A stretch of 64,000 bases of DNA from Octopus vulgaris (Eukaryota), in assembly GCA_951406725.2 (NCBI GenBank), contig CATOCA020000001.1, positions 4,650,001-4,714,000 on the forward strand, in the 5' to 3' direction. The notes under the pieces were generated by a model. The model was not told the origin of the DNA, did not search any database, and saw nothing but the letters and a program-made list of their open reading frames with translations. The translations under genes were made by a program, and so were the position numbers. Position 1 is the stretch's first letter. Every line of letters begins with the position of its first letter. This document shows positions 2,865-51,784 of this stretch, piece by piece.

Positions 2865-2910
<46 letters not shown>

Positions 2911-2912
<2 letters not shown>

Positions 2913-21228: not shown

Positions 21229-23191
21229 TTATCTCTCATAATAAAATAATCCATCAAAACGGTTGTCCAAATTTCCGTAAATCATGATGAAATAATCCGA
21301 AACATGTATGGCCTTGATGTGACAGACTTCAATTTCCTGAGAGCTGAGAAAGATTTCGCATTTGCTGTCTACAGATACTTGGTGGATATTGTTATTAAAA
21401 TCTGATATGTAAATATTTTCGCCGTGGATGGTCAAGGATTTGTTGAAAATGTTTGGAAATGGTTCCTCACCTTGAATCATTAGTTGTTGACTTCTTACCC
21501 AATTGTCTCTGTACCAACATACATCGTAATGATCTTCCTTGTACTTAAGAACGACAATGTCTTCATTCGATGTCACACCCATTGCTACAACCTTCCCCTC
21601 CTTCCCTAAATTCACTCGGCCCTTATACTCGTACATTTCACCGCCAATGTGAAGTATGTCTGCGTATGTCACATATGGAATATTACTACATTCATTTGGA
21701 GCGTCTTCAAACACACATACCAGATTTTTGCCGTTCTTTTTGTACATTAAATTGTATGGTTTTTCAGTTGTGATCTTTTTTAAAAGACACAAATCTGTAT
21801 CGAAGAACATCAGTTGTTTATCGTCACGAAAGAGGACTACAAATGATTCATCGGTCCATTGACATATATCTTGAGCTTCTTTTTCAAATGTTTGACTGTA
21901 AAGCAGATGACCGTCTCCACTGGTGACCATGAGAGTACATTTATGGAGGAGCACGACGATACTATTGTCTTGTAACATAATTAGCTTAAAAGCATTAAGA
22001 AAACAAAACATCGAATTTGAATCTAGTAAACCAGATAGAGAAAATGAAAGCGGGAACATTGCTGTTCTATGTGGCAGTCTTCTCACTGATATTTCATCAA
22101 TTCCTAACATACTTTCCGCTATGTAATTACCACGTCTTACTTCTATTTCTCTTGATGTACTTCTTCTTTCTCCTCCATCGCCACCGTTTTTAAGTTTGTT
22201 AAATAATTCATTACTGAACATTCCCTTCTTCTTCTGAGATGTAATGGAAGGGAAATGAAGGCCAGAATCAAGATTCGATAACGACATAGATTCCAGAACC
22301 TTCAGTTGGTCCCCATCAATTTTTATAGTATCACATTCAATCATGTTGATATGTACACACCAGTAAATATTTCCCACTTTTCTCCATATTATACCATAAG
22401 GTACTCGACTTTCCCAAACTTTATATTTCTCCAAGTTTTGTGACTTCAGTTGAAATATTTCTTGTCTGTTAGGGAGTGTGACCAAGATATTTCTTTCTCC
22501 TGTAAAACATACACCACCAACAAAACTTCCAAAATCTCTGTAACATAGCAACTTCCCGTCTTCATCAAATAGTTTAACATTTCCACTATTGGCCATTTCG
22601 CACACAACTGTCTGTCCTTCATCAGAGATATCGATATCTTTTACTTGAACAGGACAATTGTTTGTTTGTAACCGTGAAACGGGGAATTTTTGCCGATTAA
22701 TCTTGTACAAACCTTCAATATATAAGTACGAGTCATAGTTTGCAACAATTCTCGGGCCTTTACAGTTAATACTGTTGAAATCCAACGGACGTTTATAATG
22801 TCTTTCATTTAAGAATATTCCCTTGTATTCACCGTTCTGCAACAATGAGACAATACGATACTTTTTCGTGTTTTCATAGATGTTCTTCCGCCCAGTAATG
22901 TACAAATAAGTATCATCGGTTGCCATAGAAATGGGTCGGGAATAAATACTGTGCTTAAATGAATATAAATATTGCCCGTTCGGGTTCAGAATAGTGATGA
23001 GCCTCTCGGTATTGACGATGATGTTGTCATTAGCAATAACTGAGATATGGGTGATATTATATCTGTAGCACATCCAAAATAAGTCTATTTCTCTCATAAT
23101 ACGGACAGCTGACTGTATTTCATCGATATATATATAAAACAGGCTGTTTTCAATTTCGGGTATGCGGGTACCACCACCAACATTACTGCTG

Positions 23192-23250
<59 letters not shown>

Positions 23251-29248: not shown

Positions 29249-29299
29249 CAGCTGGCTCCACCTCTGTTTGGACTTCATTGTCAACAAGCGTTAAAGTAA
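29249..29299 (-). pseudogene. Micro-exon 10 (TLTLVDNEVQTEVEPA), acceptor AA instead of AG
   Basis: tgtttcAA|51 nt open|gtgagt. Confidence 0.75.
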
Positions 29300-30081
29300 T
29301 TGAAACAAAATTTTCTAAATTTTACACTTTACAGAAAAATGTCTTTATCTTAATTAATAATCAAAATTTTGTTATTCTGTGACATTCCTGTCCTTGATGG
29401 TCAACTGGTGACCCTTACGGCTTGGGTCAACATTTTCATACTTTCTATAGGGATACCATGTAATAGCTCAATATTCAGGTCCACAACTAAATAGACTAAC
29501 CTTCATATATCTCCCTATTAAGACATCCCACATAATCTAAGAATCACTCTATTAAGATATCTCCATAATCTAATAATTATCTTATATAATTATCACTTGA
29601 TAACACTGATTATCTCTTAGCTTAATTTTCCCTTCCATCTATCGGAGCCCAATCTACGATATGGCATTGTTCTCTCACCTCCAGATTTCCCTAATGAACT
29701 CCCAGGAAGAATGGGACGAAATGGTGAGTAATGATCTTGAAATGTTGAGCCTAACAGTCACTTGGCAGTTTGCTGTGCTTGAGAACAACCACCGACCTAA
29801 ATAAAATCAATGTCCCCCAACAATGCCTCCCCCGCACATGTCGCATTCTCCTCCATTCTCCCTCATGTACCTACATGCACATATGATGCCCTACTGTTTC
29901 TCATCCCCAACCATATCCACCATTCCTCCTTCCTCTACTACCTTCCTTTCACAAACTTATAAACTAACCCTCCCTCCCAGATCACTCTCTGTCGTATTTC
30001 ACCATTTTCTCTATCGACACATGAGGCAGCCATAGAAACAAAGGCAAAATAGACATTTGTGGGCTGTTATTTTATACTTAT

Positions 30082-30136
30082 CAACTGGCTCTGCTACCAT
30101 CGTCTGCACTTTATTTCCCTTTAAGCTTTAGATTCT
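30082..30136 (-). pseudogene. Micro-exon 9 (..NKVQTMVAEPV), donor AT, 55 nt frameshifted
   Basis: tatttcag|55 nt|ATaagt. Confidence 0.7.
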
Positions 30137-30272
30137 CTGAAATAAATATTATTTACACTAAAACCATTTTATCATTACCAATAATCTATATTCTGTTATT
30201 GTGAGAGATTCCTATCATCAATGGTCTACAAGAGTTCACACAGGTTTCGGTCAATATTTATATACTTTCAAC

Positions 30273-31337
30273 AGTGGGCCCATTATTTATGCCCTCCACA
30301 AAATTGATTGGCATTCCTAAATCTCCGCTCTCAATTAAGACATCTTACATATCTCATATACTTCTCACGTATCCTCCTTAATAAAGTAGATGAGGTAATG
30401 GCAAACTTGATAGAAATCAAAAAGGTAATGTTGATTTATACTCACCAACTGGTTCTACTTCTGTTTCAACTTCATTGTCAACAAGTGCTGGCGTCTCTGA
30501 AATAAATATTCTAAATTTTACCCTTCATAGAAAAACATCTTTATATTTCTTAATAATCAAAATTTTATTCTTTGTGAGGTATTCCTGTCGTTGCTGGTCA
30601 GCTGGTGACCAGTACTGCTCGGGTCGACATTTTCATACTTTCTACAGTAATACCATGTAATAGCTCAATATCCAGGTCCACAACTAAATAGACTCACCTT
30701 CCTATATATCCCAATTATGGCATCCTACATAATCTAACAATAACCCTATTAAGACATCTATATAATCTAATCATTACCTTCTTTAATTTTTCATTTGAAA
30801 ACACTGATAATCACCTAGATTAATTTGCCCTTTCATCAGTCGGAGCCCTATCAATGATTTGGCCTTGTCTTATCACCTGCAGATTTCTCTAATCAACATT
30901 CTTCTCCTCTTCTCATTCTGACGTCAATGAAACTGGACTCCAAACATCTAACCATAAACGCATGTCACAATACATCAAGTAGGATTAATATACACCTGCT
31001 CTCTTTTTAAAAGGTTACTGCTGGTAATCTTTAACCTTAAATCCCCACATCACAATTCATCAGAATAGGATATGATTCTGGAAACATTTGAAGATATTTC
31101 AATGTCATTAATCCTCCTTAATAATCAGTTATTTTCAGGTGAACAATGTTTGCTCCTAAGCAAGTGGAGCAGAAAGTGATATCAGGTATCCCAAAACACG
31201 GTACTCTTGTATAGAAACTCATTATCTGTACACACACAAACACACAAGCACATACACACACGCACACACGCATACACATACATATTTATGTGTGTGTGAA
31301 TGTATATATGTATATGTATGTATATATAGATGTATGT

Positions 31338-31385
<48 letters not shown>

Positions 31386-31390
31386 TTATA

Positions 31391-31441
<51 letters not shown>

Positions 31442-32618
31442 GTTTATGTATCATATATGTATATATATATATATATGAACGTTCATTTACTTATTACAGC
31501 AAAGGAATTATATTTGGAATAGTACTGACTTTCAAGAATATATAAGCAAGACAGAGACATACATCAAACTGGAAGCGCCAAATTTATTTTGCACTAGCAT
31601 TAAAGACCCATCGTTGCCGTGTCATAGTGCTAGTGCATGTATATATGTGTATATATTTGTGTACATATTACATTTACATCTATAAATATACATCTACACA
31701 TAAAATGCAAAATACAAAGTTATATCTTGATATCGCTAGTGATAACAATACTCAAAATATATAACAGACTGGAATTTTTAGCTCTTCTTATTTCTCCGCA
31801 TTTTATACTTTATAGACAATAGTCTTTTCTTTAATTTAACTTTTTACTATCCATCTGGACTATTCCATTTCTGCTCGCTAATTTTATTTTTAATTTATTC
31901 CCATTCATGTGAAACCACTTATTCTAGTTCAAATCATTGATGCAATTTTATACCAATTGCGACTTTTCCTTTTGTTATGTTACGATTATATTACAATTTA
32001 GTTTGATTTTAATTATTACTTACTACATATAATTCAATTGTTATTATTATTTTTATTGTTAAAATGAAAGCATCTGACATAAAATAGAGAATTATTTTTG
32101 TTTCACTTTTAACACGTAATACTGAAATAGTGGAGAAGATATGATATTGCTATGGGCTCGCTCTAGGCAAGAAGTTGAACATTTTCGTTGGCCCATGACA
32201 CTCCCCGGACCCTAAGTAAGGCATATGTAAAATCTGAATGAAATTGGTTGTGTAGTTCTCAAGTTTTAGGGAAACACACAGACAGACAGACAGACAGACA
32301 CACATTCTCAGTTTTAAATATATAAAGTTTATATATGTTGTTTTTTAACCGCATCACAGTTTGTGCCTTGATCCGATTGCCTCAAGACGTGTCTCTCAGC
32401 AAGCTACCGTACCATTGTCTTCAAGCTTTTGGCATGATTTCTCCTGCTATTTGTAACTTCACTTGTTTCTGCTGATCATTTACAAACGATACACAGCACT
32501 ACTTATTCGATTTAAACCACACTTTTGCCCCAAATGATGAGTTAATCCAGTCTAACCAGAATTATTTGCATATCCTTCTGATCTCTGCTTAGTATTATTA
32601 AGTAATCCATGAATGCCT
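30273..32618 (+). repeat. Recent segmental duplication copy A (copy B 36254-38545)
   Basis: Nearly identical ~2.3 kb including a micro-exon, Helitron-like element and RT fragment. Confidence 0.95.
30446..30496 (-). CDS. Micro-exon 8 (ETPALVDNEVETEVEPV), recent duplicate of micro-exon 7
   Basis: tatttcag|51 nt|gtgagt; lies in a near-identical 2.3-kb duplication. Confidence 0.8.
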
Positions 32619-33480
32619 TCTTGTTGTAATTCACTTGAGCCCTTTCTGCTGATATAAGTAACATCCTCATAACCATCTCAAACCAAATGGCTCATATTGT
32701 CAACATACGGCTATTCAAATTCCTGTCTCAACACGATGCCAGTGTGTTGTAACATTTTCTGTGATGAACCGCATTGTGAAATCATTATAGCAGCTCATAA
32801 TCAGATCTTTAATCTCCTATTAATCGTTCATTGCTTCCATCAACCATTTCTATGGTATAGAACAATAAGCATTAGCCAGATCAGGCCATACATCTTTCAA
32901 ATCAGTTATATTCTCCTTTCCTTCTTGCATTAATTCCAGATTGAAAATGCTTGTTGCGCACACGCTGGAGGTCCGGTGATTCCAGTCCTCCGGACACATT
33001 TACTCAGATAGCCATTCTTTTATAGATATGTAGCTGATATCTAAGCCCATGTAAACCTTACCATTCTCTATTGAAATTGTCCTGCTGCCACTTGCTTTGG
33101 TAAGTAAACACTTTCTTGTATGTACAGGTCATCAATCGGTTCACCTTTATACCCCAAATCTCTTCTTCCAGGTTATGCTTATAACATAACTGAGTACAAC
33201 GTTTCTATACGTTCTGTGGTACAGCATCACCTCGTGTTGCACTCTAAACTCTTACTTTCTTTACACAACTCTCAACTTCTTTCTTCCTCTTTCTTCATGA
33301 AATCACTAAGCTGAAATATTTTGATTCTTCGTTTCATTCGGCATTTCAAACTGTCCATGGCTGGGAATGGTTGATTTCGCTTTAGGTCACTGTACATCTC
33401 TTGTATATTCCCATCATTTTCCATGCCTTATAGCCTGCGACACATGGCATCAACAAACACCATTCTCGTACCATTACAAT
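32335..33480 (-). mobile_element. Heavily decayed R2/NeSL-like RT fragment (homologs ~38275-38545, ~40480-41400, ~43960-44880)
   Basis: Minus-strand remnants DLKDVWPDLANAYCSIP / LNVVWLDQSNA.GC, EMLLRSAD, AFMD. Confidence 0.7.
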
Positions 33481-33550
33481 GGTTCTTTAGGAACTGCTAT
33501 CTAAAACTATTTACCTTATTTAAATATATGGCCTGATCTTGTTTGTTGTT

Positions 33551-33596
33551 AGCACAACGTTTCGGCTGTTATACCCTGCAGCCTTCATCAGGTGCT
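33551..33596 (-). ncRNA. Minimal type-I hammerhead ribozyme
   Basis: AGCAC-CUGAUGA-A-GGCUG(CAGGGUAUAA)CAGCC-GAAAC-GUU^GUGCU; stems I and II 5 bp each, palindromic AACGUU. Confidence 0.8.
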
Positions 33597-33650
33597 TTGG
33601 GGAAATTCCTAAGGTATTTTTCGATGTTGTTGTTATTATTATTATTATTA

Positions 33651-36006
33651 CTTTTTTTTCTTCTTTCAAATTCTCTTCCATTTCTTGCCGAGTGTCTTCC
33701 CGACTCCTAGGGCAAAGAAACTCATAGTATACATTGGTAAGCCATTAAACCAAACTCAGTAGTTCGTTCATTTTTTTTTTTTTTAAAGTTAAATTAAAAT
33801 ACATGAGCAGCAACAGTTCTCACATCGACAATGCTCTTCTCAATACGTGTGATGTACCAGTTAAGACAATCTTTTGCACTTCTTGCAGGGTTGGTAAGCC
33901 AGGGATCATTCTCATATAATTTTCGGTTCCCTTCTTGATCATTCCTAGTGCTCCTACGATCACTGGTATTGTAACTGCCTTGAGATGCCACATTTTCTCA
34001 ATTTCAATGAGTAGGTCTTTATATTTTCTGAGCTTGTCAAACTCTTTCGCTGAGATATTATGATCACAGGGGATGCTCATGTCGATCAATAAGCAAACTT
34101 TATTGTTTTGGTCTTTCACAACAATATCTGGTTTATTGGCCTTGATGGGTCGGTCTGTATGTACTGGAAAGTCCCACAGAATGGTTACATTTTCTCCTTC
34201 AGTTACAGCCTCAGGGTGGTGATTATACCACTTGTCGGCAGTTTTGATATTGTAATGCCGACTTATTAGCCAGTGGAGATATTGGCCAACTCTGTCATGT
34301 CTTAATTTATACTCCACTGGTGCTAAGACTTTACATCCAGAGATTAGGTGGTCCACTGTTTCAATCATGTCGTTGCAGAATCGGCATTTTGGGTCTGCTC
34401 CATTTTTCATCACATTGGCCTGGTAGTTCCGGGTTAATAGGCTTTGATCTTGAGCAGCCAGGATGAAACCATCGCTCTCTGCTTTTAGCCCTGAGCTCCG
34501 TAGCCACTGATGGGTTTGCTTCTGGTCAACATCAGCTTGTTTGATGCGGGTCACATATTTGCCGTGCAGAGGTTTCTCCTCCCACCTATCAGCCAATTGC
34601 TCGTGCGCTTTCTTCATTGGCATCATTTTTACCTTCTTTGCAACAATAGTTGCCCTACTTCCCTCGGGTTGTTCAGTTTGGGTTTCCTGCACGAGATCAA
34701 TAGCAAATTTTTTGCTTTCCTTTATGATAGAATGAAGCTTCTTTCGTCTCTCGTGATTTTCCACGAGCTTTAGCATCCAGTCATTCGATATTTCGAGATA
34801 TTTGGCCAGTCCAATTGTGGTTGTTTTGTAAGCTAGTTCAAATTGGATCAGGCCTCGACCTTCTTGGGCTCTGGGAAGGTAAAGGCGATCTACGTCTGCC
34901 TTTGGGTGGTGCATCCTATTACAACTCAGCAGCTTGCGTATTTTTCTATCTATATTCTTTACTTCACTCATATTCCAGTTCAACACATCGTAGCTATAAG
35001 TAACAACTAGAACTGCTAAGGAATTTATAGCTAACACCTTGTTACGTGCATTTAGTTCAGATTTCAGGACTGCACGAACTCTCCTATAACATTCCTTCCT
35101 GATTTTCTCTTTCATGCTTGCATGCTGAATACCAGACCCTTCATTTATCCCTAAATATTTGTATGTTTGTTCTTGCTCAAGCTCTCTTATGACTGTGTCA
35201 ACATCTAACACGACTGAATTTGTGGTCTTCACTTTACCTTTCTGGAAAGTGGCCTTGGCACACTTCTCAAGTCCAAACTCCATCCCGATGTCATCGCTGA
35301 ATGCTTTCATGGTGTGCAATAGGCCTTCAAGTTCATTATTGTCTTTACCATAAAGTTTTAAGTCATCCATATAAAATAGATGGCTTATTTTTTTATTGGC
35401 AATTTTATACCCATACCCTGTTCTGTTTAATTCACTTGTAAGTGGTATTAGGGCTATGCAGAATATTAAAGGTGAAAGTGAGTCACCTTGAAAAATTCCA
35501 CAGTTGATGTTTATATTTTCTGAGGCAAGTACTCCATTAGAGTGGTATAATTGGAGATTCGTATTCCACAACGACGTATTGTGCTTCAGGAAGTTTGAAA
35601 TCACAGGGGAAATTTTGAAGATGTCCAGCGATCTCAAGATCCATGGATGCGGTATACTGTCGAAGGCCTTTTTATAGTCAATCCATGCGGTGCTGAAATT
35701 TCTGCGCTTGTTGTGACAGTTCTCAAGGATCATACGATTGATTAGCAGTTGATCTTTGCATCCGTAAGAGCCTCGGCGGCACCCTTTTTGTTCAATGAGG
35801 AGAATATCGTTCTTCTCCATGAATGCATATGTTTTCTCCGCCAGGATAGATGTTAGGATTTTATACGTGGTGAATAGACAGGTTATAGGCCTATAGTTTT
35901 TTGGAAGGTTGGTTTCGTTATTCTTTGGGAGTAGGTAAGTAATGCCACGTGCTAACCATTCAGGTGTTTTCTTTGGGTCTCTCATAATTCCATTGAGCAG
36001 CTGAAC
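33651..36006 (-). mobile_element. 5'-truncated non-LTR retrotransposon, R4/Dong-like clade (RT + CCHC finger + restriction-like endonuclease)
   Basis: Uninterrupted ORF to 33820: NYRPITCL, EQKGCR, IDYKKAFDSI, GIFQGDSLSP, YMDDLKLY, YKYLG, CRFC..ETVDHLISGC, RHD, KPDIVV..IDMSIP..KLRKY; (TAA)n on both sides. Confidence 0.95.
33820..36006 (-). CDS. Reverse transcriptase / RLE endonuclease ORF (N-terminally truncated)
   Basis: ORF track 33820..36096; first ~30 codons are (GAT/AAT)n microsatellite. Confidence 0.9.
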   Translation of the reverse strand, partial: VQLLNGIMRDPKKTPEWLARGITYLLPKNNETNLPKNYRPITCLFTTYKILTSILAEKTYAFMEKNDILLIEQKGCRRGSYGCKDQLLINRMILENCHNKRRNFSTAWIDYKKAFDSIPHPWILRSLDIFKISPVISNFLKHNTSLWNTNLQLYHSNGVLASENININCGIFQGDSLSPLIFCIALIPLTSELNRTGYGYKIANKKISHLFYMDDLKLYGKDNNELEGLLHTMKAFSDDIGMEFGLEKCAKATFQKGKVKTTNSVVLDVDTVIRELEQEQTYKYLGINEGSGIQHASMKEKIRKECYRRVRAVLKSELNARNKVLAINSLAVLVVTYSYDVLNWNMSEVKNIDRKIRKLLSCNRMHHPKADVDRLYLPRAQEGRGLIQFELAYKTTTIGLAKYLEISNDWMLKLVENHERRKKLHSIIKESKKFAIDLVQETQTEQPEGSRATIVAKKVKMMPMKKAHEQLADRWEEKPLHGKYVTRIKQADVDQKQTHQWLRSSGLKAESDGFILAAQDQSLLTRNYQANVMKNGADPKCRFCNDMIETVDHLISGCKVLAPVEYKLRHDRVGQYLHWLISRHYNIKTADKWYNHHPEAVTEGENVTILWDFPVHTDRPIKANKPDIVVKDQNNKVCLLIDMSIPCDHNISAKEFDKLRKYKDLLIEIEKMWHLKAVTIPVIVGALGMIKKGTENYMRMIPGLPTLQEVQKIVLTGTSHVLRRALSM

Positions 36007-36023
36007 TATTATTATTATTATTA

Positions 36024-36079
<56 letters not shown>

Positions 36080-36253
36080 TTCATCATCATCATCATTATT
36101 ATTCACGTCACTGCCTGAAATCAAACACGGAATCTTGGGGTTTTAGAAGCATGCTGTACGCCAGGGGGAGAAATTATGAACCAAATTTTAGGGATTATTT
36201 TCCTATATTTCCTTAATGCAGGTTCCAATATGCTACTCATCTCTACTTCGGAT

Positions 36254-37334
36254 AGTGGGCCCATTATTGATGCCCTCAACAAAATTGATTGGTATTCCTA
36301 AATCTCCGCTCTCAATTAAGACATCTTACGTATCTCATTTACTTCTCACGTATCCTCCTTAATAAAGTAGATGAGGTAATGGCAAACTAGATAGAAATCA
36401 AAAAGGTAATGTTGATTTATACTCACCAACTGGTCCTACTTCTGTTTGAACTTCATTGTCAACAAGTGCTGGCGTCTCTGAAATAAATATTCTAAATTTT
36501 ACACTTCATAGAAAAACATCTTTATATTTCTTAATAATCAAAATGTTATTCTTGTGAGGTATTCCTGTCGTTGCTGGTCAGCTGGTGACCAGTACTGCTC
36601 GGGTCGACATTTTCATACTTTCTACAGTAATACCATGTAATAGCTCAATATCCAGGTCCACAACTAAATAGACTCACCTTCCTATATATCCCAATTATGG
36701 CATCCTACATAATCTAACAATAACCCTATTAAGACATCTATATAATCTAATCATTACCTTCTTTAATTTTTCATTTGAAAACACTGATAATCACCTAGAT
36801 TAATTTGCCCTTTCATCAGTCGGAGCCCTATCAATGATTTGGCCTTGTCTTATCACCTGCAGATTTCTCTAATCAACATTCTTCTCCTCTTCTCATTCTG
36901 ACGTCAATGAAGCTGGACTCCAAACATCTAACCATAAACGCATGTCACAATACATCAAGTAGGATTAATATACACCTGCTCTCTTTTTAAAAGGTTACTG
37001 CTGGTAATCTTTAACCTTAAATCCCCACATCACAATTCATCAGAATAGGATATGATTCTGGAAACATTTGAAGATATTTCAATGTCATTAATCCTCCTTA
37101 ATAATCAGTTATTTTCAGGTGAACAATGTTTGCTCCTAAGCAAGTGGAGCAGAAAGTGATATCAGGTATCCCAAAACACGGTACTCTTGTATAGAAACTC
37201 ATTATCTGTACACACACAAACACACAAGCACATACACACACGCACACACGCACACACACACATATTTATGTGTGTGTGAATGGATATATGTATATGTATG
37301 TATATGTAGATGTATGTTGATATATATATTTATA

Positions 37335-37373
<39 letters not shown>

Positions 37374-38545
37374 GTTTATGTATCATATATGTATAAATAT
37401 ATGAACGTTCATTTACTTATTACAGCAAAGGAATTATATTTGGAATAGTACTGACTTTCAAGAATATATAAGCAAGACAGAGACATACATCAAACTGGAA
37501 GCGCCAAATTTATTTTGCACTAGCATTAAAGACCCATCGTTGCCGTGTCATAGTGCTAGTGCATGTATATATGTGTATATATTTGTGTACATATTACATT
37601 TACATCTATAAATATACATCTACACATAAAATGCAAAATACAAAGTTATATCTTGATATCGCTAGTGATAACAATACTCAAAATATATAACAGACTGGAA
37701 TTTTTAGCTCTTCTTATTTCTCCGCATTTTATACTTTATAGACAATAGTCTTTTCTTTAATTTAACTTTTTACTATCCATCTGGACTATTCCATTTCTGC
37801 TCGCTAATTTTATTTTTAATTTATTCCCATTCATGTGAAACCACTTATTCTAGTTCAAATCATTGATGCAATTTTATACCAATTGCGATTTTTCCTTTTG
37901 TTATGTTACGATTATATTATAATTTAGTTTGATTTTAATTATTACTTACTACATATAATTCAATTGTTATTATTATTTTTATTGTTAAAGTGAAAGCATC
38001 TGACATAAAATAGAGAATTATTTTTGTTTCACTTTTAACACGTAATACTGAAATAGTGGAGAAGATATGATATTGCTATGGGCTCGCTCTAGGCAAGAAG
38101 TTGAACATTTTCGTTGGCCCATGACACTCCCCGGACCCTAAGTAAGGCATATGTAAAATCTGAATGAAATTGGTTGTGTAGTTCTCAAGTTTTAGGGAAA
38201 CACACAGACAGACAGACAGACAGACACACATTCTCAGTTTTAAATATATAAAGTTTATATATGTTGTTTTTTAACCACATCACAGTTTGTGCCTTGATCC
38301 TATTACCTCAAGACGTGTCTCTCAGCAAGCTACCGTACCATTGTCTTCAAGCTTTTGGCATGATTTCTCCTCCTATTTGTAACTTCACTTGTTTCTGCTG
38401 ATCATTTACAAACGATACACAGCACTACTTATTCGATTTAAACCACACTTTTGCCCCAAATGATGAGTTAATCCAGTCTAACCAGAATTATTTGCATATC
38501 CTTCTGATCTCTCCTTAGTATTATTAAGTAATCCATGAATGCCTC
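36254..38545 (+). repeat. Recent segmental duplication copy B
   Basis: See copy A; the identical spurious 61-aa ORF appears at 31637 and 37563. Confidence 0.95.
36427..36477 (-). CDS. Micro-exon 7 (ETPALVDNEVQTEVGPV)
   Basis: tatttcag|51 nt|gtgagt, phase 1-1. Confidence 0.8.
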
Positions 38546-38592
38546 AGCTGAAGGTAAAATTGATAGAATTCAATTAGATATTTTATACTCAC

Positions 38593-38664
38593 CAACTTGC
38601 TGTGATGCATCTTTTGAAGTAAATGCCTCTGTCTGGACTTGCTTGTTCTGAGACTTGGGAAACC
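38593..38664 (-). CDS. Micro-exon 6 (FPKSQNKQVQTEAFTSKDASQQV)
   Basis: tatttcag|72 nt|gtgagt, phase 1-1, open. Confidence 0.8.
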
Positions 38665-41600
38665 CTGAAATAAATATTTCAAGGTTTTTAAAATTTATTA
38701 TAAAATATTTTAAATCTAGATATTAATAATATATATTTTATTATTGTTGGAGTTTCTGATCATCAATGGGCAGCCTGTGTATGAACAGCTGTGTATGCTA
38801 CATAGTAGGGAAATATATGTTGTGAACACAGAGGACGTGTAAAGTCTTGAACAAAATGGAACCAGCATGCTCCACTGGATGGTCACTGTCAGTGTGCAGG
38901 TATAAAATGCTGACATGTTTTAAGATAAAAATCGAGTGTTATCACATGTATGTAGTACGCAAGACAGACGACTGTGCTAGTATGACCCTGTGATATGTAT
39001 GAATAAGATCAGCTGTATAAAGAGCACCGATCTGTAAATGTGGAGAAAACCTCAAGAAAACTGGAAGGAATTGTTGAGAAATGAGCTTCAGATCTTGAAC
39101 CTGAGAGTCAATCGGTAGAAAAGCGGGTATCTTTAAGAGACATATGTTCCTCGACCAATGGGGGTGGATAGTATCTCAGAATAGGACGTGTCTTGGGTAG
39201 AGACCGCCCATCAAATACATTTTAGAAAGAACATCAGACGATAAATGATGAGGATGTATTCGATTGTATTGTTATATGCAGCTAGTATTTATCTTGAAAG
39301 AGAAAGAGACAATGGTTTCTCAGCAGAAAACCAAAGTCATTACTTCGATAAAGACAATGCTTAGTGGATGGAACGATAAATTTAATGTTGTATCTAAGAA
39401 AAGACAACAGCAAAAATAAAAGTTTAAAACATTGTTAAAAGATATGAAGAGATAATATTTTGTAACAGCAACATCCGACATAATTCGTGATATAACAACT
39501 CAAATCTTCCTAATTTAACTAAAATATTGCACACAGTTCTACAACACCATTTCCAAAACGCTTCCGTCCCATTAATTGTCGATAAACACAGAAATAGCTA
39601 CACCAGTCGTCTCGTTAGCTGAAAACACTGATATACACCAGTTGAGCTTACTACTATAGAGAGAAATCCGTGATTATCTGGCAATGTTTAACTTGACCAT
39701 TACAAAATTCGTTAACCCTAGAAGAAGTTCAGATGTACAATTACAAACTGCACGGTGGAGAGATATCATATTGTACCCTGACTGCTACCACAATCCGCCG
39801 TACACAACAAAACGCAGCATTTTAGCAGTTCCTTGTGTGATGATTAACAAAATGAAAGAATGGAATATCTCACGGGTTAGATCTGTATTTTTCACTGAGG
39901 CTATAACCAGCTACCTCTGGTTATAGATCTATTAAAGGGCTGAGTAGAAATTAAACTACATGTGGTAAGATTTCTCTCTCCGACACATAATAGACATACA
40001 AAATTGAGATAAGCCCGCCCCAGCACGAATTTTATCAGAGAATGAAGTAAATAATTATCGAATAAACAAAACAGAAACGACTTTTTACTAAATTAGATAA
40101 ATCAATTAATTACTGCACACCAATTTCTAATTGCTGGACAACTTCAAACAATCTGACATCGCGACATCAAGTATCCTGAAACATTGTACACTTGCACAAA
40201 ACCTTATTAACTACATTTAACTGGTCATCTACATACTATTGCATAAACATATCCGAAATGATACATAATAACTGACAATTAAGCATATATAAGCATGACA
40301 CAAATATAGATCAAACTGGAAGCATTGAATCTTACGTTTGCCAGCAAGTTTCGAATATTCTCTTTCTTTTAACCCATTCCCATGTTTTCGTTTTCATTTT
40401 AATGCCCTTACAATTATTGGAGAAAGAGGCAGCGCACCAATGTCGAAACTTTTATAAGTTTAAACCTAAACGTATGCATAGTTTCTCCTGCTACTTTGAA
40501 CTTCACTTTGTTCTGCTGATCTTCCACAAGTAACAGATTGTATTATTTATTTGCTTCAAGTCAAATTCTTGACAAAGTAATCAGTCCACCCAGGCTATCC
40601 AGAAATATTTGCATAACATTTTGGTCTCTACATAGTATTTTTATGTCATCCATGAATGTCTTGTCTTGTTCTTTCACTTGGGTCATTTCTTTTGAGCAGA
40701 CTACTGATCTAAGTAACATCTCGAAACTGAAGGATTAATATTGTGCACCCTGCTCCAATTCCGATGACAGTCCCTGTAAAATGGTTTGTAATGAGCTGCC
40801 TTTTGAAATTGTTATACCAGCTCATCATCAGACCTTCACACTGCCCCAGTATGTCAAAGAAGTTCATTGATTTCATCAATAAATTGTATGGTACCCAACC
40901 ATATGCTTTAGAGCGATCAAGGCATACAACATTCCAATTACTTCAATTCTTCTTTGTGTGTTGATCCCAGTTTGACATCTCATGTCCTTCAAACCAAGAA
41001 AGTCAGGGGATTCCAGTCATCTGCACACTTTCCATCACATATCAATTATTTTGTATTTGTATAGGTGATCTCTTAGCATGTACATCCACGTAAAGCATGT
41101 CATTAAGGATTGAAACTAATTTCAATTGGCCAATTAATTGTGATTCAGATTCCTTTCATAAGTGAACTCTTTCTGCCTTATATCAGTCATAAATCCCTTC
41201 AATTTTATACTACAAACCCTTACTATTATATAATGCTTATATAATGCAGTTTTTGCTCTTGCCTCCTTGTTGCTGCAATCTCTCAGTTAAAATTTTAATT
41301 CCTGACTTTCTTAGAGGTTTTATTAGAAAGACATCAACGTTTCTTTTGCTTGTACCACAATAAAATGCACCTAGGACACTTTATCAAATGGTTTGTTTTA
41401 GGAAATTATACCCTCATATAAAACCTAGAATGGTTAACTGAGATTCGTCTGCACTCCGATCAAGAGGTGGGAGCCTGGAAATCAGACGATAAAGGATGAA
41501 GAGATAGTCAATTATTGTATAGTATCTTGCAACCAGTATCTGTTTTGAAGTAAGAAATATAGACAACAACTATCACAGAAGTAAGTTGGATGAGGGCAAT

Positions 41601-42118
41601 GTTTAGCGTATGTAATGAAATATCTGTGAAATAAATCAGACTGCTTATACTTGAAATACATTTCAAAGTACTTTTTTAGAAATATCAGCCAAAATAACAA
41701 TATTAATCTATCAGCAAACATAGTAGAAAATGTAAAACAAAGAGAAATGTCATTAACACGAATGTTTATCGCTAAACAACTACGAATATTAGTTTTCTCT
41801 TCCAAAGTGAAATATAAAATCTATTGTCTTCGAAGTTATCCATTTTACAAACCATGCTCACCACATCGGATATTTTGTGAAATTACAATAATATCGATAT
41901 GTTTTATTGGGTAAACTGGCAATATGACCATTCCGAAATATAATAATATCTGTTTCAACACACGACTTCACATAAAAAAATCTTGCACAACAAATATTTA
42001 ATAGAATTATTATGCATCAAACTTTTCAAATGCAAAATTTGGATTGGAAGATGTTGTCAGTCATTCAGTAAAGTTAAAATTTACAGTAATCGATAAGGTA
42101 ATGATATTTTATACTCAT

Positions 42119-42181
42119 GATCAAATGATTCTGTTTCAAGCATAGGAAAGTTTGGAGACAGTATTGTTTGCGACTATGTGT
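42119..42181 (-). pseudogene. Micro-exon 5, dead (DT*SQTILSPNFPMLETESFD)
   Basis: Acceptor ttcCG, donor ATgagt, in-frame TAG; homologous flanks. Confidence 0.65.
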
Positions 42182-42284
42182 CGGAAAAATATATTTTCAA
42201 GTTTTACATTTTACACTATAATGTGATTATATCTATTAATCAAAAATATTCCATTACCGTAAGATATCTTTATGTTCAATTGTC

Positions 42285-43295
42285 AACGGCTGACCACTAT
42301 GCTTTTGGTCAGCACGCTTTACAGATTCATTACAACAAAACTCTATATTAAGAGCCACCAAAATATTAACTAATTTCCTATCTTTACTCTCTGTATTCAG
42401 ACATCAAATATAATTTAACAATATTGTAATTATTTAATTTCATTGTCTCTTTATAACAATATTTTGCTTTTAGTTTTCTCTTTCCTTCCGTATTTCTCTG
42501 ATTTTCAGGGAGTTTAAGGCACAGGTATAAAGAGAGGATAACTCAACTACTGAAAAACAGTGCTATAAAGAGATAATTACGTGAAGTATTTGCAATATTG
42601 TTCAATTATGTTGGATGTCACAGTACATTGCATAGATATGTGAAAGTTGGTCTCAAAACGAAGCTGGATTGGACCAATCGCATAAATCTCTTCAACGACA
42701 CCTATTTACCTGCAATTTACAACAGGTGTGAAAGCTGGTACACAATGAAGAGGGAGGAAGTGAGTCTGATAATGGCCAAAATCACAATCGAAAAATCGAC
42801 GTTATGGAATGTTGCTAAATTTGCACATCAGGGGTGAGGCGATCATAGAGAAATCAGGTGTGAGAGACATCATCACTAAAAACTTATGGCAAAATTTCAG
42901 ATGGGACAGGTAACCAGCTCACTGAAAATATTTAGAGATGCACAGTTGTTGAGAGTTGTATACACGAGCAGAGGAGGTCACTGAGAGCGAATCCAAAAGT
43001 GAGTGTTTGACGAAATACGACATGCTACGTAGGTGAGAAGGTCAAGATGAAGACAGAAGTGGAGGATGCACTGTGTTCTCTGGTGTCGTCAATACACTCA
43101 GTCAGTCGACCATGGTCAAGGTGGTATTTCTGTCACATCTATGACATAGCGTTTTCACCTCTACCGTAGTAAACGTCACGAACCAAACTTCTCGTTTTCT
43201 GCTCAACTCCAATGTCAAGCAAGTGGATGACCATATATCTATCTACAAAAACTGGTCACACCACTTACCGTTAGACAGAAAGTACCTGCTCTCTG
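42285..43295 (+). repeat. ~1-kb duplication (second copy ~45800-46810) carrying a decayed RTE fragment
   Basis: High identity by eye; RINLFNDT.LPAIY.RCESW resembles the RTE LFN..VLP.MLYG.E.W motif. Confidence 0.85.
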
Positions 43296-45615
43296 TGAAA
43301 TATTGCTTCTGGTAATCTTTGATTTTAACTGCCCACATCAACCTGCGTATTTGTGACGCATCAATGACATGGCGTTTTCACATCTACAGTAGAACTCACT
43401 AATCAAACATTCTTATAATTTTCTGCTCACCTCCAATGTCAACAAGGTTAATCATCAAATATCGATCTTCAAATACATTTCACACCACTTCATTTTAGAC
43501 AACTAGCACCTACTCTCTGCGTGAAACATTGCTGCTGGTAATCTTTAAGTTTAACTGCTCTCACCAACGTTCGCCAGAATGTCTTCTGATACAGAAGATG
43601 TGTGAAACCTCCTTACGGAAACAGTTTTCTTTCCAGATGAGTAATAATTTATTCTACTAAGATGTTGGCGAAATTGGTATCAGGTACCCCAAAAACTACA
43701 CCGCCGTTTATCTACACATCATTGCATAAAATGCATCCGAAATGGTACATAATAGAACTGATTCTCAAAAATACATACGCAAGCCATGCTAGAAACATCA
43801 TATACTATATTTACTTTGAGGTTTTCACAAATCTATTGCTTATAAACCATTATCGATTTTTACCATGATCTCAATATCTCTATTCTTACTAGACAATAGG
43901 GAAGCCTACCAGCATACGAAATACTTACAAATTTGTCATTAAAATATGTCATGGTTTCTCTTGATACGTTGTATATCACTTGTTTCTGCTGCCCTTTGAC
44001 AATTAAAAAACCGTATTATTTATTTGCATTAAGTCTTAATCTCGACCAAGGATTAAATCCATTCCGGTTGTCCAAAACTATTAGCATATTCTTTTGATCT
44101 CTTTCCCTTATTTGTATGTCATCGATGATGTTTCTTCAGCCATATCTGCTGATCTGAGTAACATCTCATTAACAAAGACTGACATTTTGCATCCTACTCT
44201 AGTTTCACGCCAATCCTACTCTCTGTATAATATGTGTGTAACGAATAGCATTTGGAAATTGTTAAACCAACTCTTCGTCATATTTTTAAAATCCTCCTGT
44301 ATGTAAACGAAGGCCATTGCTTTTCTCGATGGTTTATGTTGTTCACATCCCTAAGCATTAGACTGATCCAACCATACAACATTCAAATCACTTCTATTTT
44401 TCTATGTATGTTGGTCCCACTTTTACAAGGCATGTCCCAAACACTCAGGATGTCAACGGATTCTTTTGCATTCACACTTTCAGTCTCATTAGAGTTATTT
44501 TGTCGATGTGTAGTTGATCTCTGACCATGGAAATCTTAGCAATCATAATTGCAATCGGTGCCAACTTGCGAATTAGTTTCGCTTTAGCTTAAGTTGTACG
44601 CAAAATCTTTCTCTCTTCCTCCAGCCATCAATCACACCAACTTTATACCCGAAAGCTCCACCATTATGTGATGCCTACAACAAAACCTTGTACAAGACTT
44701 GAAACTTTCTAATGTACAGCCTCACCTTGCCTTATACCCAAAGATAACTACTTCTTTCCTGCTGCAATCCTCAAGCTCAAATTCTTCGTTCCTGATTTTG
44801 TTGGACATTTTCTAAGAGAGACGATAATATTTCACATGCTTTGCAACAATAAAATGCACCTAGAACCCTTTAGAAAGTGGTTGGTGTCAGGAATGGCATA
44901 GCACTACATGAAAGCAGTGATGTTTAAGTGAGATATGTTCCTCTACGAATGAAGAAGGGAAGTAGTTCTGAAGAAGAACTGACTTGGACAGCGACAACTC
45001 ATCTAGTCCATAGGAGCCTGGAAATCTAACGATAAGTGTCGGGGTTGTTACCTGTGATTCACTTGCATCGTGCAACCTGTATCTTTCATGAAGTAAGAAA
45101 GGCAGATACCGATTATCACAGTAGCAAAGAAATGTTTTCTATTCGGGAAAAGACAATGTGTAGTGGATGTAATAATGAAATTACTACCAGTGTAACATAA
45201 CAGAGAGTTTACACTTGGAACGCATTTCATTGTAATTCTTCTAGATTATGAGAAGCATCCGTTTAAATAACAACAATAACAATAATAACCTACGAGTGAA
45301 TGTGGTAAAAAATGTGACAAAAACGGCTGTCATTAACTCTAAATTTATGTTCCTAAACAAATAGCTTAGTTCTATCTTTCTCAAAACTATACTAAATATA
45401 TTCCCGTTTCAATTTTCCATGTTACAAACCACGCTAACTTCGTTGGATATTTTGTGAAATTTCAATAATATCGATATATTGAATAGAATTATTATACAAC
45501 AAACCTTTCGAATCTAATTAGGGATAGAATCTGTACTCAGTCGTTCTAACATACAAAAGCTCGAGATAAATTGAAATGTATAGAAATCGGTAACTTAATA
45601 TTATTTCATACTTAC

Positions 45616-45702
45616 ATTCTTCCTCTGATTCATCTACTCCAGAAGATGATTGTAAACCGGAATCGGTACTGGCTCCGGGTACTATACTTGCTGTTGAATG
45701 TT
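45616..45702 (-). CDS. Micro-exon 4, Ser/acidic (EHSTASIVPGASTDSGLQSSSGVDESEEE)
   Basis: atttcag|87 nt|gtaagt, phase 1-1, open. Confidence 0.75.
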
Positions 45703-47082
45703 CTGAAATGAATATTTTCAAGATTTGCGTTGTATAGCATGATGTGCTTATCTTTGTTAATAATCTATATTTCACTATTGTGACTTATTTCTATTGTCAA
45801 TGGTCAACGGCTGACCATTATGCACGCTTTCAATATAACAAAACTCTATATAAAGGGCCACCAAAATATTAACTAATTTCCTCTCTTTACTCTCTGTATT
45901 CAGACATCAAATATAATTTAACAATATTGTAATTATTTAATTTCATTGTCTCTTTATAACAATATTTTGCTTTTAGTTTTCTCTTTCCTTCCGTATTTCT
46001 CTGATTTTCAGGGAGTTTAAGGCACAGGTATAAAGAGAGGAAAACTTAACTACTGAAAAACAGTGCTATAAAGGGATAATTACGTGAAGTAATTGTAATA
46101 TTGTTAAATTATGTTGGATGTCACAGTACATTGCATAGATATGTGAAAGTTGGTCTCAAAACGAAGCTGGATTGGACCAATCGCATAAATCTCTTCAACG
46201 ACACCGATTTACCTGCAATTTACAGCAGGTGTGAAAGCTGTTACACAACGAAGATGGAGGATGTGAGTCTGATAATGGCCCAAAGCACAATCGAAAAATC
46301 GAGGTTTGGGAGTGTTGCTAAATTTGCACATCAGGAGTGAGGCGATCATAGAGAAATCAGGTGTGAGAGACATCATCACTAAAAACTTATGGCAAAATTT
46401 CAGATGGGACAGGTAGCTAGCTCACTGAAATTATTTAGAGATGCACAGTTGTTGAGAGTTATATACGCGAGCAGAGGAGGTCACTGAGAGCGAATCCAAA
46501 AGTGAGTGTTTGACGAAATACGACATGCTACGTAGGTGAGAAGGTCAAGATGAAGACAGAAGTGGAGGGTGCACTGTGATCTCTGGTGTCGTCAATACAC
46601 TCAGTCAGTCGATCATGGTCAAAGTGGTATTTCTGTCACATCTATGACATAGCGTTTTCACCTCTACCGTAGTAAACGTCACGAACCAAACTTTTCGTTT
46701 TCTGCTCAACTCCAATGACAAGCAAGTTGATAACCATACATCTATCTACAAAAACTGGTCACACTACTTACCGTTAGACAGAAAGTACCTGCTCTCTCCG
46801 TGAAACATTGGATTTGGTAATCTTTAATTGTAACTGCCCACTTCTACGTACATCAGAATGTCATCTAATGTAGAAAATATTTGAAGACCCCTGAATGAAA
46901 TAGATTTCATCCCAAGTGAGGAATAATTAATTCTACACAGGTGTAGGAGAAAGAAATATCAGATGTCCCCCAAAACTGTTACCACCTAATTTACTTCATA
47001 TAAGTTCATGGTAAATTTACTATCAGTGAAATATGACAGAATCTTTATGGAAATCGATAAGGTAATATAAATTTAAACTCAC

Positions 47083-47133
47083 CATGAAGTTTTCTACTGA
47101 GTAGTCTCCTTCTGGCTAAATTTCTTCTATAAT
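47083..47133 (-). CDS. Micro-exon 3, basic (DYRRNLARRRLLSRKLH)
   Basis: atttcag|51 nt|gtgagt, phase 1-1, open. Confidence 0.65.
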
Positions 47134-47639
47134 CTGAAATGAATATTTTCACGTATTACATTTTATTGTATGAATTGGTTATATCTCTTAATCTATATTT
47201 TGATATTCTTCGACATTTATATCTTAAATGGTCAACGGATGACCACTATATCTTTGGTGAGCGACTCATACTGTTTACCACAATATTTAGAGCCTTCAAA
47301 ATATGCGCAAATTTCCTACATATCCCCTCTGTATTTAGATATCCAGCATAATTTATCAAGATTGAAATTATTTAATTCAATTACCTCTTTATAACGGTAT
47401 TCTTCATTTAGTTATGCCTTTCCTTTCGTATCTCCCTGCATTTGAGCGAGTTTAATGTACAGATATAAGAGAGCAAAACTAAACTAATGAGAAACAGTGT
47501 TATAAAGAGATAATTACGTGAAGTAATTGCAATATTGTATAAATTATGTCGGATGTCGCATTACAGTGCGGTGATATATATCCGTAATCAAGCGATCAGA
47601 GAGAATTCTGGTGAGAGCGACATCATCACCAAATGCAGA

Positions 47640-48010
47640 AGGAAGAAGTGTTGTATTACTCTTGAATAGTCTCCTGATGTTATATGGGCAGCATATCTTT
47701 TGTATCTTTTCGGAGAGGCCTTTCACATAGGGTAGACAGACTGTGGACAGTTCATTGGTTTCATCCTCTTTTTTCGTCATAATTGGAGGGGATTGTATGT
47801 TTTTGGGTAGTTGTTGCTTAATAGATTGTTAATTAGCTTGATCATTTCTTCGTGGTGGGTTTCACGATCGACACTTATATTCTTAGTCGATGTTTTAGGC
47901 ACTGAGCAATCCCTCTCTTTACACTGTATGGATGGTAGGAAATGAAGTTGAAGTATCGTCCAGTAAAGGTCAGTTTGCGGTATACGGATGTCCTGAATCC
48001 ATAATTTATT
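47640..48010 (-). mobile_element. Penelope-like RT thumb/linker fragment
   Basis: VYRK.T.TG..NF.SYHPYSVK.G, LLSNNYPK, VCLPYVKGLSEKIQKIC..YNI...FKSNTTL. Confidence 0.8.
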
Positions 48011-49006
48011 GTATTGTATCTTGCAGCAAATATTTATCCTGAAGAGAGTGAGACAATGGTTGTCCCAGCAGGAAACCAAAGTCTCCTTCTTGGACAAAGA
48101 CAACGTTTAGTGCATGTAATGATAGATTTACTTTCAGTGAGAAAAGTATGTTCACAGTTGGAACAAATTTCATTGTAACTCTGCGAGATTATGAGAGACA
48201 TCTGCCTAAACAACAACAACAATAACAATAACTGCCTATCCATAAACAGTCAGAATGAAAAACAAACAAAATCATAATTCTCCTGCTTACACTTAACCCA
48301 TGGTCTGCTATGAGAATCTAATAAAAATTGGTGTGTTTAACAATATTTAGTAATTAAATTTTGTCATTATTAACTCTGGCTAATTCTAGAGGACATTTAT
48401 ATCATAAATCGCAATTTTTGAACTACAAAAATATCGACTGTTTTGAAAAGTTCTTTTTTCTTTTCTTGCATTTCCCTTCTATATCATTCATTGATATTTC
48501 ATACACATTCGCATTTGATACTCTAGTTTCAGAAAAACTAAAATCTTTATTATTGCAATTGAATAGAAAGAGATAAATATGCTTTTTCTCAGCGATCCCC
48601 ATTTGGGACTTATCGAAACAATTATCATAATTTCCAAAATAAATCACATATGAAGAAAATTTAAATACTATGTATTATTTTAACTCCTGAGACACCAGGC
48701 AAAGCCAAAAATATGAATACAAAATTGGCAGTTAATGGTTAAACAACATTATTAGTTTCATGATCAAATGACAAAATCAACTCTATTGTGTCCTCTATTT
48801 TCAACACTATTACCAACCGTGCTAACTTGAAGCGATATTTTATAAACTTTCAGTAATATCGATATCTTTAACAGAATTATTATACAGCTAATCGTTCAAC
48901 TTGAAAGTAGGAGTGGAATCCATTTTCAGTTATTCTTTCAAACACAATATACCCAGGTAAATTAAATCTTATAGAAATCAATTGGGAACTCTTATTTTAT
49001 ATTCAC

Positions 49007-49071
49007 CACTTTGCTCGGATGTAGGCTCTAATAATTGTAAATCTGTTTGCACTCCCTTGTCTTTGGAGATA
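49007..49071 (-). pseudogene. Micro-exon 2 (..KDKGVQTDLQLLEPTSEQS), acceptor TG, 65 nt (frame-breaking)
   Basis: tatttcTG|...|gtgaat; homologous flanks; apparent internal deletion. Confidence 0.7.
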
Positions 49072-50458
49072 CAGAAATAAACATTTACAAGTTTTACATT
49101 TAATAATAAAATTTCTTTATCTTTATTTTTATTAAACTCTATCTTGTTATTGTGAGACATTCAATTCCTGTTGTTACTGGTCAACTGTTGACCATTATGG
49201 TTTTGGTCAATATTTCTGTACTTTCTAAAGTGGTCCCATGTAATAGCCCAATATGTCCACAATAAAACAGACTAACATTCCTAAATCCACCCTCTCCCTC
49301 TCTTTCTCTCTCTCTCTCTCTCTCACTCTCTCTCTCTAAAAACACATTAAATATTCTAACAATGTTGCAATTATCCCGTTTAATTAACACTTGATAACAG
49401 TTTTCTCTTAGCTTTGTCTTTCTCTTCTTATAACTGTGCCAAATCTATGGCATGGCACAGTCCTCTCATCTCTAGAATTCACTAATCAACATTCCTCTCT
49501 AGTTAAGTAAAACTGAGGCCATAAAGATGTCCTTTATGTGTATACACTCCACTCCGCAACACTGTCTGTCCCCTAAAAACATCTCCACAAGCCAAATTGC
49601 ATACACACTTCCCCAACATGATCCCTAACAAGATATAAAATGTAAGGTAAGGGTACATGATGATGCTATGACAAAATTTGAACGCAACAATCAAGACCAA
49701 AGGGTGAAACACTCAGAAAACTGTGCCTCTTTTAGCATTAATATCATCTAAAATCTAACAAGTGTGAGAAAAAGAATGACTATATGGATGGTAAATGCTG
49801 TTCAAACAACGTAATAAGTGTATATTATATATAGTTACAAACAAGGATTTGTGAGATCAAGTCACACAGGGAACTCATATTTAATTCCTATCTTTATATT
49901 TTATGTCAACGCCAATATTTTGTTTAAATGCAAACAGATGTTCACGGTTCAATACTAAATCTAACATTTAATAAAATTAAGTTCATGATGAATATTCTTA
50001 TACAGAGTTAATATTTAATTAGAATTTTCTAATTTGCAACTACAAAATGTATTCTAACCAGAGACATTCAGGGTACACAACCCCAGAAAATACAAAATAT
50101 TACGACAGACATCTGGCTACATAACAACATCAAGAATAACCTATCAGAAAACTTACGAAAGATCTTAGTAGAAAAACAAACAACTATTTTATTAATTCAC
50201 GAGTTTACACCTAAAATAATAAATTATAGTTCCATAGAAGACAATATTAACTCTTTTGTGGCTTTTAATTTATCCATTTTACCAAACATGTTAACCATGA
50301 CTTTATGAAATTTCATATTTTTAATACAATTACTTTAGAGCTAACCTTTAAATGGAAATTAGAAATGGGATTTGTTCTCCACCATTCTAATACGCAAAAT
50401 AACTGAGGTGGATGTACAATCTATAGAAATTAATTAAGATCTCTAATTTTAAACTCAT

Positions 50459-50509
50459 CAACTGTCTCTGCCACAGTCTGCACTACCTTCTCTTCAAACT
50501 TTGGACTCT
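50459..50509 (-). pseudogene. Micro-exon 1 (ESPKFEEKVVQTVAETV), donor AT instead of GT
   Basis: atttcag|51 nt open|ATgagt; flanks homologous to the other micro-exon units. Confidence 0.75.
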
Positions 50510-51643: not shown

Positions 51644-51784
51644 CATCTCCAGTTCTGCTCGTTACAGGTTTCCCTGCACTTCAGACATCGTTTAAGAGAG
51701 ATTCTCGAACATGTTTCACATGTGACAAAATGCCCGCATGGAAGAAATTTTATTGTGGCCGTTTTATTTTTGCACCACAAACAT
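51644..51784 (-). CDS. C3HC4 RING finger exon (MIB/IAP-type), with a probable +1 G near 51672
   Basis: ccacag|a CLWCKNKTATIKFLPCGHFVTCETCSRISLKRCLKCR...|gtaaga; C-x2-C..PCGH..C-x2-C..C-x2-C. Removing one G gives CRKPVTSRTGD and a phase-1 end matching the downstream exons. Confidence 0.9.

Follow-up and report, generated by a model that had tools for sequence, protein, structure and literature searches.

ASCIZ/ATMIN and Nup159 are multivalent clients of LC8 (DYNLL), and the Mind bomb proteins combine an N-terminal MIB/HERC2-ZZ-REP region with two or three C-terminal RINGs. In disordered chains LC8 favours Gln as the anchor, and its site in gephyrin is of the form G-V-Q-C (accessible part of PMC12057147). 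Linker L2 of KANK1 contains many weak LC8 sites that bind cooperatively and stiffen the linker (accessible part of PMC12803091). A different architecture is found in the micro-exon genes (MEGs) of schistosomes, which comprise arrays of small symmetric exons with alternative splicing, a high ratio of nonsynonymous to synonymous substitution rates (dN/dS) and transposon enrichment; their products carry signal peptides, are mostly coded by micro-exons and are reported to be restricted to flatworms (parts of PMC4350168 available to us). It is likewise known that symmetric exons are linked in general with disorder and duplication (PMC3632108, in part). Here we describe a stretch of 64,000 nucleotides (nt) from Octopus vulgaris (contig CATOCA020000001.1, positions 4,650,001 to 4,714,000; in the following, the window), whose minus strand holds ten short exon-like units, here called cassettes, between the RING exon and the long terminal exon of a gene with ankyrin repeats (ANK). 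We put the probability at roughly 0.6 that the cassettes are duplicates of the first of two exons encoding a Death domain (Death exon 1), that most of them encode one predicted LC8 site each, that they serve as crossover points, and that the window copy is a chimera.

The proteins of the family consist of ANK, RING, zero to five cassettes and a Death domain, in this order. At the sequence level the ligands of the RING are in place, and the proteins are putative ubiquitin ligases. Searches with the RING-linker region, which need common short words and may miss wider relatives, returned 41 proteins, each bearing the name of one of three Octopus species; a search of representative proteins with the ankyrin exon returned generic ankyrin proteins only and was not used. 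The Death domain exceeds the curated Pfam cut-off (22.6) in three of four proteins of one set (33.5, 27.7 and 38.2 bits) and is below the cut-off or absent in a further set of seven family proteins; its nearest solved structure is the PIDD death domain (E 0.001). Within the same genome, 17 paralogous loci, scanned with a profile of the window's ten upstream flanks only, harbor 0-14 cassette units each. Nine of these loci terminate in two Death exons and eight in a long exon like that of the window (94-100% identity). Over the loci examined, 110 non-Death units comprise 76 intact and 34 dead ones, and the same dead units recur in many paralogs. No description of the family, its array or its link to LC8 was found in a literature search that was run mostly without subscription journals and without supplements.

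The profile built from the window flanks also matches Death exon 1, in the same register. For all nine Death exon-1 units both flanks align to cassette flanks above every shuffle, with scores of 58-156 upstream (maxima of the null 27-40) and 54-67 downstream (22-28). When the comparison is anchored at the acceptor and held in a fixed register, 16 of 23 cassette subtypes match Death exon 1 (z 3.3-6.4), and the six subtypes that fail outright are all of the c3 or c4 types. Intermediates are also present: in one full 72-nt duplicate the tryptophan of the Death domain is gone, and some units of 51 nt have part of the triad (see below). A common origin of the cassettes and Death exon 1 is well supported. 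That the cassettes are duplicates of Death exon 1, rather than its source, is likely, because the Death fold is old and the cassettes are shortened; the closest ancestor pair of Death exon and cassette was judged by eye. Single cassettes and single Death exon-1 pieces have no match in Pfam. We note that locus L073 (C29:19259706) holds a full-length, in-frame 72-nt duplicate of Death exon 1 in which the conserved Trp is lost and the Q-T triad is absent; similar units recur on the same contig.

The ten units of the window extend from position 50509 to 29249, where the first-pass annotation had placed them. The five intact units (c3, c4, c6, c7 and c8; lengths in Table 1) have AG/GT sites and an open phase-1 frame, the remaining five (c1, c2, c5, c9 and c10) are damaged at a splice site or in the frame. 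An acceptor-to-donor pattern occurs five times in the region and in none of 200 base-shuffled copies; a stricter version of the pattern gives 141 occurrences genome-wide and none in a reversed control. The intron blocks upstream of the cassettes share a pairwise identity of about 67-81%. Cassettes c7 and c8 are located within a 2.3-kb duplicate of 96.3% identity, and up to five tandem copies of the c7-type unit are found in one paralog. The intron between c7 and c8 holds an open reading frame (ORF) of the long interspersed nuclear element (LINE) type, and this insertion is also present, entire or in part, in paralogs. The earlier description of ten duplicated minus-strand cassettes of 51-87 nt, five of them intact, symmetric (phase 1-1) and of lengths divisible by three and five of them decaying, is thus confirmed by coordinates, splice sites, lengths, frames and a pattern beyond shuffles. 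Its tandem duplication with birth and death is supported at the level of the family by homologous flanks and the 0-14 units over 17 loci, as is its view of the linker as variable in copy number; the array itself stands, while the encoded predicted LC8 anchors and the likely origin from Death exon 1 had been missed.

A triad of V/T/S-Q-T is found at residues 10-12 in 55 of the 76 intact and 18 of the 34 dead units, and some subtypes are canonical K-x-T-Q-T. An LC8 anchor of this type has been described (PMC12057147 and PMC5746249, each in the part accessible to us). The genome encodes a standard LC8 gene, and scanned family proteins have no Pfam domain over the cut-off in the linker between RING and Death. 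When the octopus LC8 dimer was modelled together with 36 residues of O. bimaculoides linker that span two sites, the predicted complex had a score of 0.58 (best control 0.01), which is graded as weak support, comes with no interface, and may reflect memory of solved LC8-peptide structures, the linker being that of a relative and not that of the window. In the calibration, the mark was reached by 51 of 78 solved pairs and 2 of 108 mismatched pairs; scores of 0.60 or below comprise only 5 of the 78 solved pairs, but all 4 passing mismatches of 180. Contacts agree between prediction runs to at least 79%, and the predicted local distance difference test value (pLDDT) of the partner is at least 51. 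Most cassettes thus carry a predicted docking site for LC8, and binding is likely.

Two alternative roles of the triad have to be considered. The linker might be a disordered spacer of tunable length in which the triad is inherited from the founder exon and binds nothing. This is consistent with the 21 of 76 intact units that lack the anchor and are nevertheless kept in frame (paralogs often lose it), with isoform models that include anchor-less cassettes as readily as anchored ones, and with a Gln at the same position in some subtypes of Death exon 1. We regard a mere spacer as rather unlikely, as the triad persists in subtypes whose other codons are heavily changed, and is retained in a second species group, the proteins of O. 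bimaculoides, while the complex prediction lies, if weakly, above its controls. In addition, the anchor Gln switches between synonymous codons (7:6 over 13 subtypes, which were chosen for having Gln, so that conservation in this codon table is partly circular). Alternatively, the triad could bind another signalling partner, for example a TRAF-domain protein. TRAF-linked pathways often involve Death and RING domains, and Gln-Thr with its acidic neighbours bears a loose resemblance to TRAF sites; the TRAF2 consensus, however, wants Glu directly after Gln where the cassettes have Thr, and several subtypes are canonical K-x-T-Q-T, making such a partner very improbable.

Evidence for splicing comes from contigs of sequencing runs that were guessed to be RNA, none being recorded as such, and whose depth is not read as expression level. 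The joint from c4 to c6 is found in all four RNA-like runs; those from the c7/8 type to c10 and from c10 to the terminal exon are each found in three of three, and the joint from the c7/8 type directly to the terminal exon in two of three. None of the latter three occurs in a large DNA-like run. Loose contig ends, assessed by eye, connect the RING exon to c2-type units or Death exon 1, c2-type units to Death exon 1, and c6 to c7/8. No contig among those listed leads from the RING exon through to the propeller exon; joints of RING to c3 and of c3 to c4 are likewise not among the rows listed, a result that carries no weight as divergent c3 copies miss the 90% threshold. In isoform models of O. 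sinensis, one gene uses all seven non-empty subsets of three cassettes, a second has five linkers in five isoforms and a third ten different linkers in 12 isoforms. These models come from automated annotation, their isoforms were assigned to genes by common scaffold length and numbering, and exons of near-identical sequence may have been placed wrongly. Three proteins of O. bimaculoides contain five, four and three cassettes, respectively. Combinatorial inclusion of cassettes is therefore supported for the family. Regulated skipping of c10 at propeller-type genes was considered and is unnecessary: c10 is intact at five, dead at three and absent at one of nine propeller loci, and these genomic differences in splice sites explain both of its joints. 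At the propeller-type loci L002, L012 and L017/L018, truncated copies of c6 have a new internal donor and would yield a 26-nt, frame-breaking exon.

The terminal exon of the window is a single exon of 4.9 kb and about 1,610 codons; two other loci hold open versions of 1,611 and 1,613 codons. It has no Pfam match over the cut-off. Among 13 weak PDB matches of its profile, 11 are NHL domains of TRIM-NHL type (E 0.004-0.09), and its neighbours in a protein language model are NHL at 0.92. The exon is thus probably a set of NHL-type propellers. Its relatives, from a search that likewise needs common short words and may miss wider ones, comprise 35 proteins (32 from Octopus, two from Argonauta, one unnamed), and those in the databases carry their own, non-ankyrin N-termini. 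The start of the exon has at least 111 genomic matches, mostly on one contig (C28) and many with open frames near 1,800 codons, which points to a large and uncharacterised octopod family whose proteins are probably propellers of NHL type. An exact look-up of the two intact propeller exons returned no record; the Atlas contains one of them from its first Met. We further note a poly-Ser (AGT/AGC) tract in the terminal exon (window 23185-23265, minus strand), with in-frame length differences of 3-63 nt among paralogs, and a second indel-prone site near exon nt 2140-2200.

The surroundings of the array resemble those of a Death-type gene. The part of the window from 53.5 to 48.7 kb is 83-91% identical to Death-type paralogs, and the flank from 11.5 to 0 kb shares 94% identity with the sequence that follows Death exon 2 in another paralog. 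Within the window no match to Death exon 2 was found, nor did the scan with the flank profile detect a Death exon there. Judged by these identities, the window gene is probably a chimera in which the propeller exon replaces the Death exons. A RING exon is located upstream at four of nine propeller loci, each RING being of a different type; at the other five, neither ANK nor RING occurs within the 19-66 kb fetched upstream. The RING exons of the window (51644-51784) and of locus L012 share 58% protein identity, the surrounding introns 90-97%, which suggests that the RING exon is also exchanged or fast-changing.

As assembled, the window copy has three frameshifts: at 51675 in the RING exon, and at 25702 and 23346 in the terminal exon (Table 1). 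The RING exons of all 11 paralogs compared leave a remainder of 2 modulo 3 (140 or 143 nt in ten of them, the start of the eleventh being shifted in the measurement), and the window RING exon has a phase 2 end, out of frame with the phase-1 cassettes. It closes in TG, and c3, c4, c7, c8 and the terminal exon open with A; a stop therefore arises at the first joint, or one joint later where c6 is the leading cassette. The extra base at 51675 is absent from all listed covering contig depth in four of four runs. At 25701-2 the open frame makes up all depth in two RNA-like runs and about one third in a third; at 23345 it is present in three of three, at partial depth in two. Because the contigs show open-frame versions of sites that are frameshifted here, they probably come from paralogs or other alleles, and the window copy is probably a pseudogene, or makes an ANK-RING protein only. 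An assembly error was considered for all three frameshifts; it may underlie those at 51675 and 23346 and is unlikely for 25702, where the frameshift is common to another locus with a different RING. The first-pass annotation had proposed a combinatorially spliced linker in an ANK-RING gene with a propeller end. A propeller end is probable for this locus; that the usual C-terminus of the family is the Death domain had been missed. Combinatorial splicing is supported for the family, by cassette joints in RNA-like contigs and isoform models, and is not supported for this frameshifted copy.

Table 1. Exons, cassettes and inserted element of the gene in the window (positions counted from the first nucleotide of the window).
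Feature	Position	Strand	Length (nt)	Remarks
Short ankyrin-region exon	60628..60664	-	37	read by eye; AG/GT sites; peptide resembles family proteins
Ankyrin-repeat exon	55864..56073	-		Pfam Ank_4, E 1e-10; 84% to family protein
Last ankyrin-region exon	54097..54272	-		phase 2 end; 95% to family protein P0237
RING (C3HC4_3) exon	51644..51784	-	141	Pfam E 3e-8; one extra base near 51675, past last Cys
c1	50459..50509	-	51	donor dead; VQT triad; identical dead donor in 6 paralogs
c2	49007..49071	-	65	acceptor dead; 72 nt in paralogs; VQT codons retained
c3	47083..47133	-	51	intact; without anchor; fast-changing type
c4	45616..45702	-	87	intact; Ser/acidic; without in-register anchor; fast-changing type
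c5	42119..42181	-	63	acceptor and donor dead; stop inside
c6	38593..38664	-	72	intact; VQT triad, predicted LC8 site
c7	36427..36477	-	51	intact; VQT triad, predicted LC8 site
LINE-type reverse-transcriptase ORF	33820..36102	-		760 amino acids; c7-c8 intron; Pfam RVT_1, E 3e-27
c8	30446..30496	-	51	intact; recent c7 copy; anchor Gln changed to Glu
c9	30082..30136	-	55	donor dead; frameshifted
c10	29249..29299	-	51	acceptor dead here; VQT triad; intact at 5 paralogs
Terminal exon	21229..26084	-		starts in phase 1; two frameshifts (25702, 23346); repeats probably of an NHL-type beta-propeller

The introns of the ankyrin region contain a 0.8-kb (TA)n run (window 56500-57330) and a 3-kb (ATC/ATT)n trinucleotide array (61000-64000). 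On the plus strand, at 2817-3251, a fragment of a GIY-YIG endonuclease (Pfam E 4e-7) probably derives from a retroelement.

Among the loci fetched, the c3 and c4 types occur only at propeller-type loci, and both change faster than their introns. For c3, 23 of 51 exon sites and 31 of 228 flank sites are variable (5 copies, p 2e-6), for c4 33 of 81 and 22 of 208 (6 copies, p 3e-8), where the copies are few and related, and conversion of the introns could mimic such an excess. The proportions of nonsynonymous and synonymous differences in c3 are 0.27 (pN) and 0.08 (pS). Among six other cassette classes one is mildly faster (p 0.035), four are no different, and c10 is slower, with 1 of 51 exon sites and 30 of 223 flank sites variable (p 0.014). 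These rates bear on the possibility that the array is a mere by-product of unequal crossing-over, in which symmetric exons are harmless to the frame and propeller fusions are dead ends. Half of the window units are dead, the same dead units are found in many paralogs, a LINE and recent 96% duplicates are located inside the array, and each of the four loci with RING plus propeller carries a lesion as assembled. We nonetheless consider a by-product improbable: c10 varies less and c3 and c4 vary more than their flanks, neither of which fits neutrality, open-frame joints of cassette to propeller occur in three of three RNA-like runs, and exons of 1,611 and 1,613 codons stay open at two loci.

Together with the caveats given above for the predicted complex, the codon table, the isoform models and the anchor-less units, several observations weigh against the proposed reading. 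In global alignment the entire exon bodies of cassettes and Death exon 1 are not above shuffles. A tree of the flanks, in which each distinct peptide is represented by a single row (79 in total) and from which poor-donor units and an unrelated locus were excluded, does not resolve its backbone and does not set the direction from Death exon to cassette. Only two of the five intact window cassettes have the anchor. The lesions at all four RING-plus-propeller loci also count here, as does the absence of ANK and RING from the 58-66 kb upstream of both intact propeller exons; at one of these two loci the assembly has a gap 3.3 kb ahead of the first cassette. A functional ANK-RING-propeller protein may exist.

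If the cassettes did arise in the proposed way, tandem duplication of Death exon 1 would have produced an array of symmetric cassettes in a family of putative ANK-RING-Death ligases. The number of cassettes, and their inclusion, would then set how many LC8 dimers hold two chains together in the stretch that separates the RING from the C-terminal module, and would thereby affect the dimerisation of the RING and how far away the C-terminal domain is placed. As likely crossover points, the repeated units would have placed a module of cassettes plus propeller behind at least four different RING halves, in place of the Death exons. A wider version is tentative: octopuses would possess a modular intracellular sensor-ligase kit in which LC8 sites, one per exon, derive from a Death exon and vary in number through duplication and splicing, crossover at these repeats exchanges Death for a multi-NHL propeller among ANK-RING halves, and diversifying selection acts on a second class of exons in propeller-type genes. 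The array would make it possible to trace how the exon of a folded domain gave rise to a short linear motif, as intermediates persist in the genome, and would show a route by which C-terminal domains are exchanged within an octopus gene family that is large and unstable. On a single scaffold, LC8 valency would also range naturally from zero to several sites, so that the effect of multivalent LC8 binding becomes directly testable.

Several described systems share features with this family. TRIM-NHL proteins (TRIM71, Brat, TRIM2/3) have a RING, a dimerising linker and NHL-type propellers, an arrangement predicted for the propeller-type genes as well, but here B-box and coiled coil are absent, and about 1,600 propeller-like residues, with weak matches, are encoded by one exon. 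Mind bomb 1/2 also place a C3HC4_3 RING after ankyrin repeats, databases label the relatives 'MIB2-like', and MIB1 is among the PDB matches. In contrast to Mind bomb, the relatives scanned have no match to MIB/HERC2, ZZ or REP and a single RING followed by Death or propeller, which sets the family apart. The likeness to MEGs lies in small symmetric phase 1-1 exons, in alternative inclusion in isoform models of relatives and in c3 and c4 outpacing their introns; here, however, the array is a minor linker, of 17-29 residues per exon, in a multi-domain and probably intracellular putative ligase, and the gene is thus not a MEG. As in the LC8 clients ASCIZ/ATMIN, KANK1 L2, gephyrin and Nup159, several short Gln-anchored motifs are located in a linker, and the LC8 site of gephyrin resembles the G-V-Q cassettes (PMC12057147, in part). 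Unlike in these clients, every predicted site corresponds to a single symmetric exon, open to duplication, skipping or inactivation, and apparently derives from an exon of a folded domain. In its construction the linker resembles a micro-exon gene, and by analogy it likely works as linkers do in multivalent LC8 clients.

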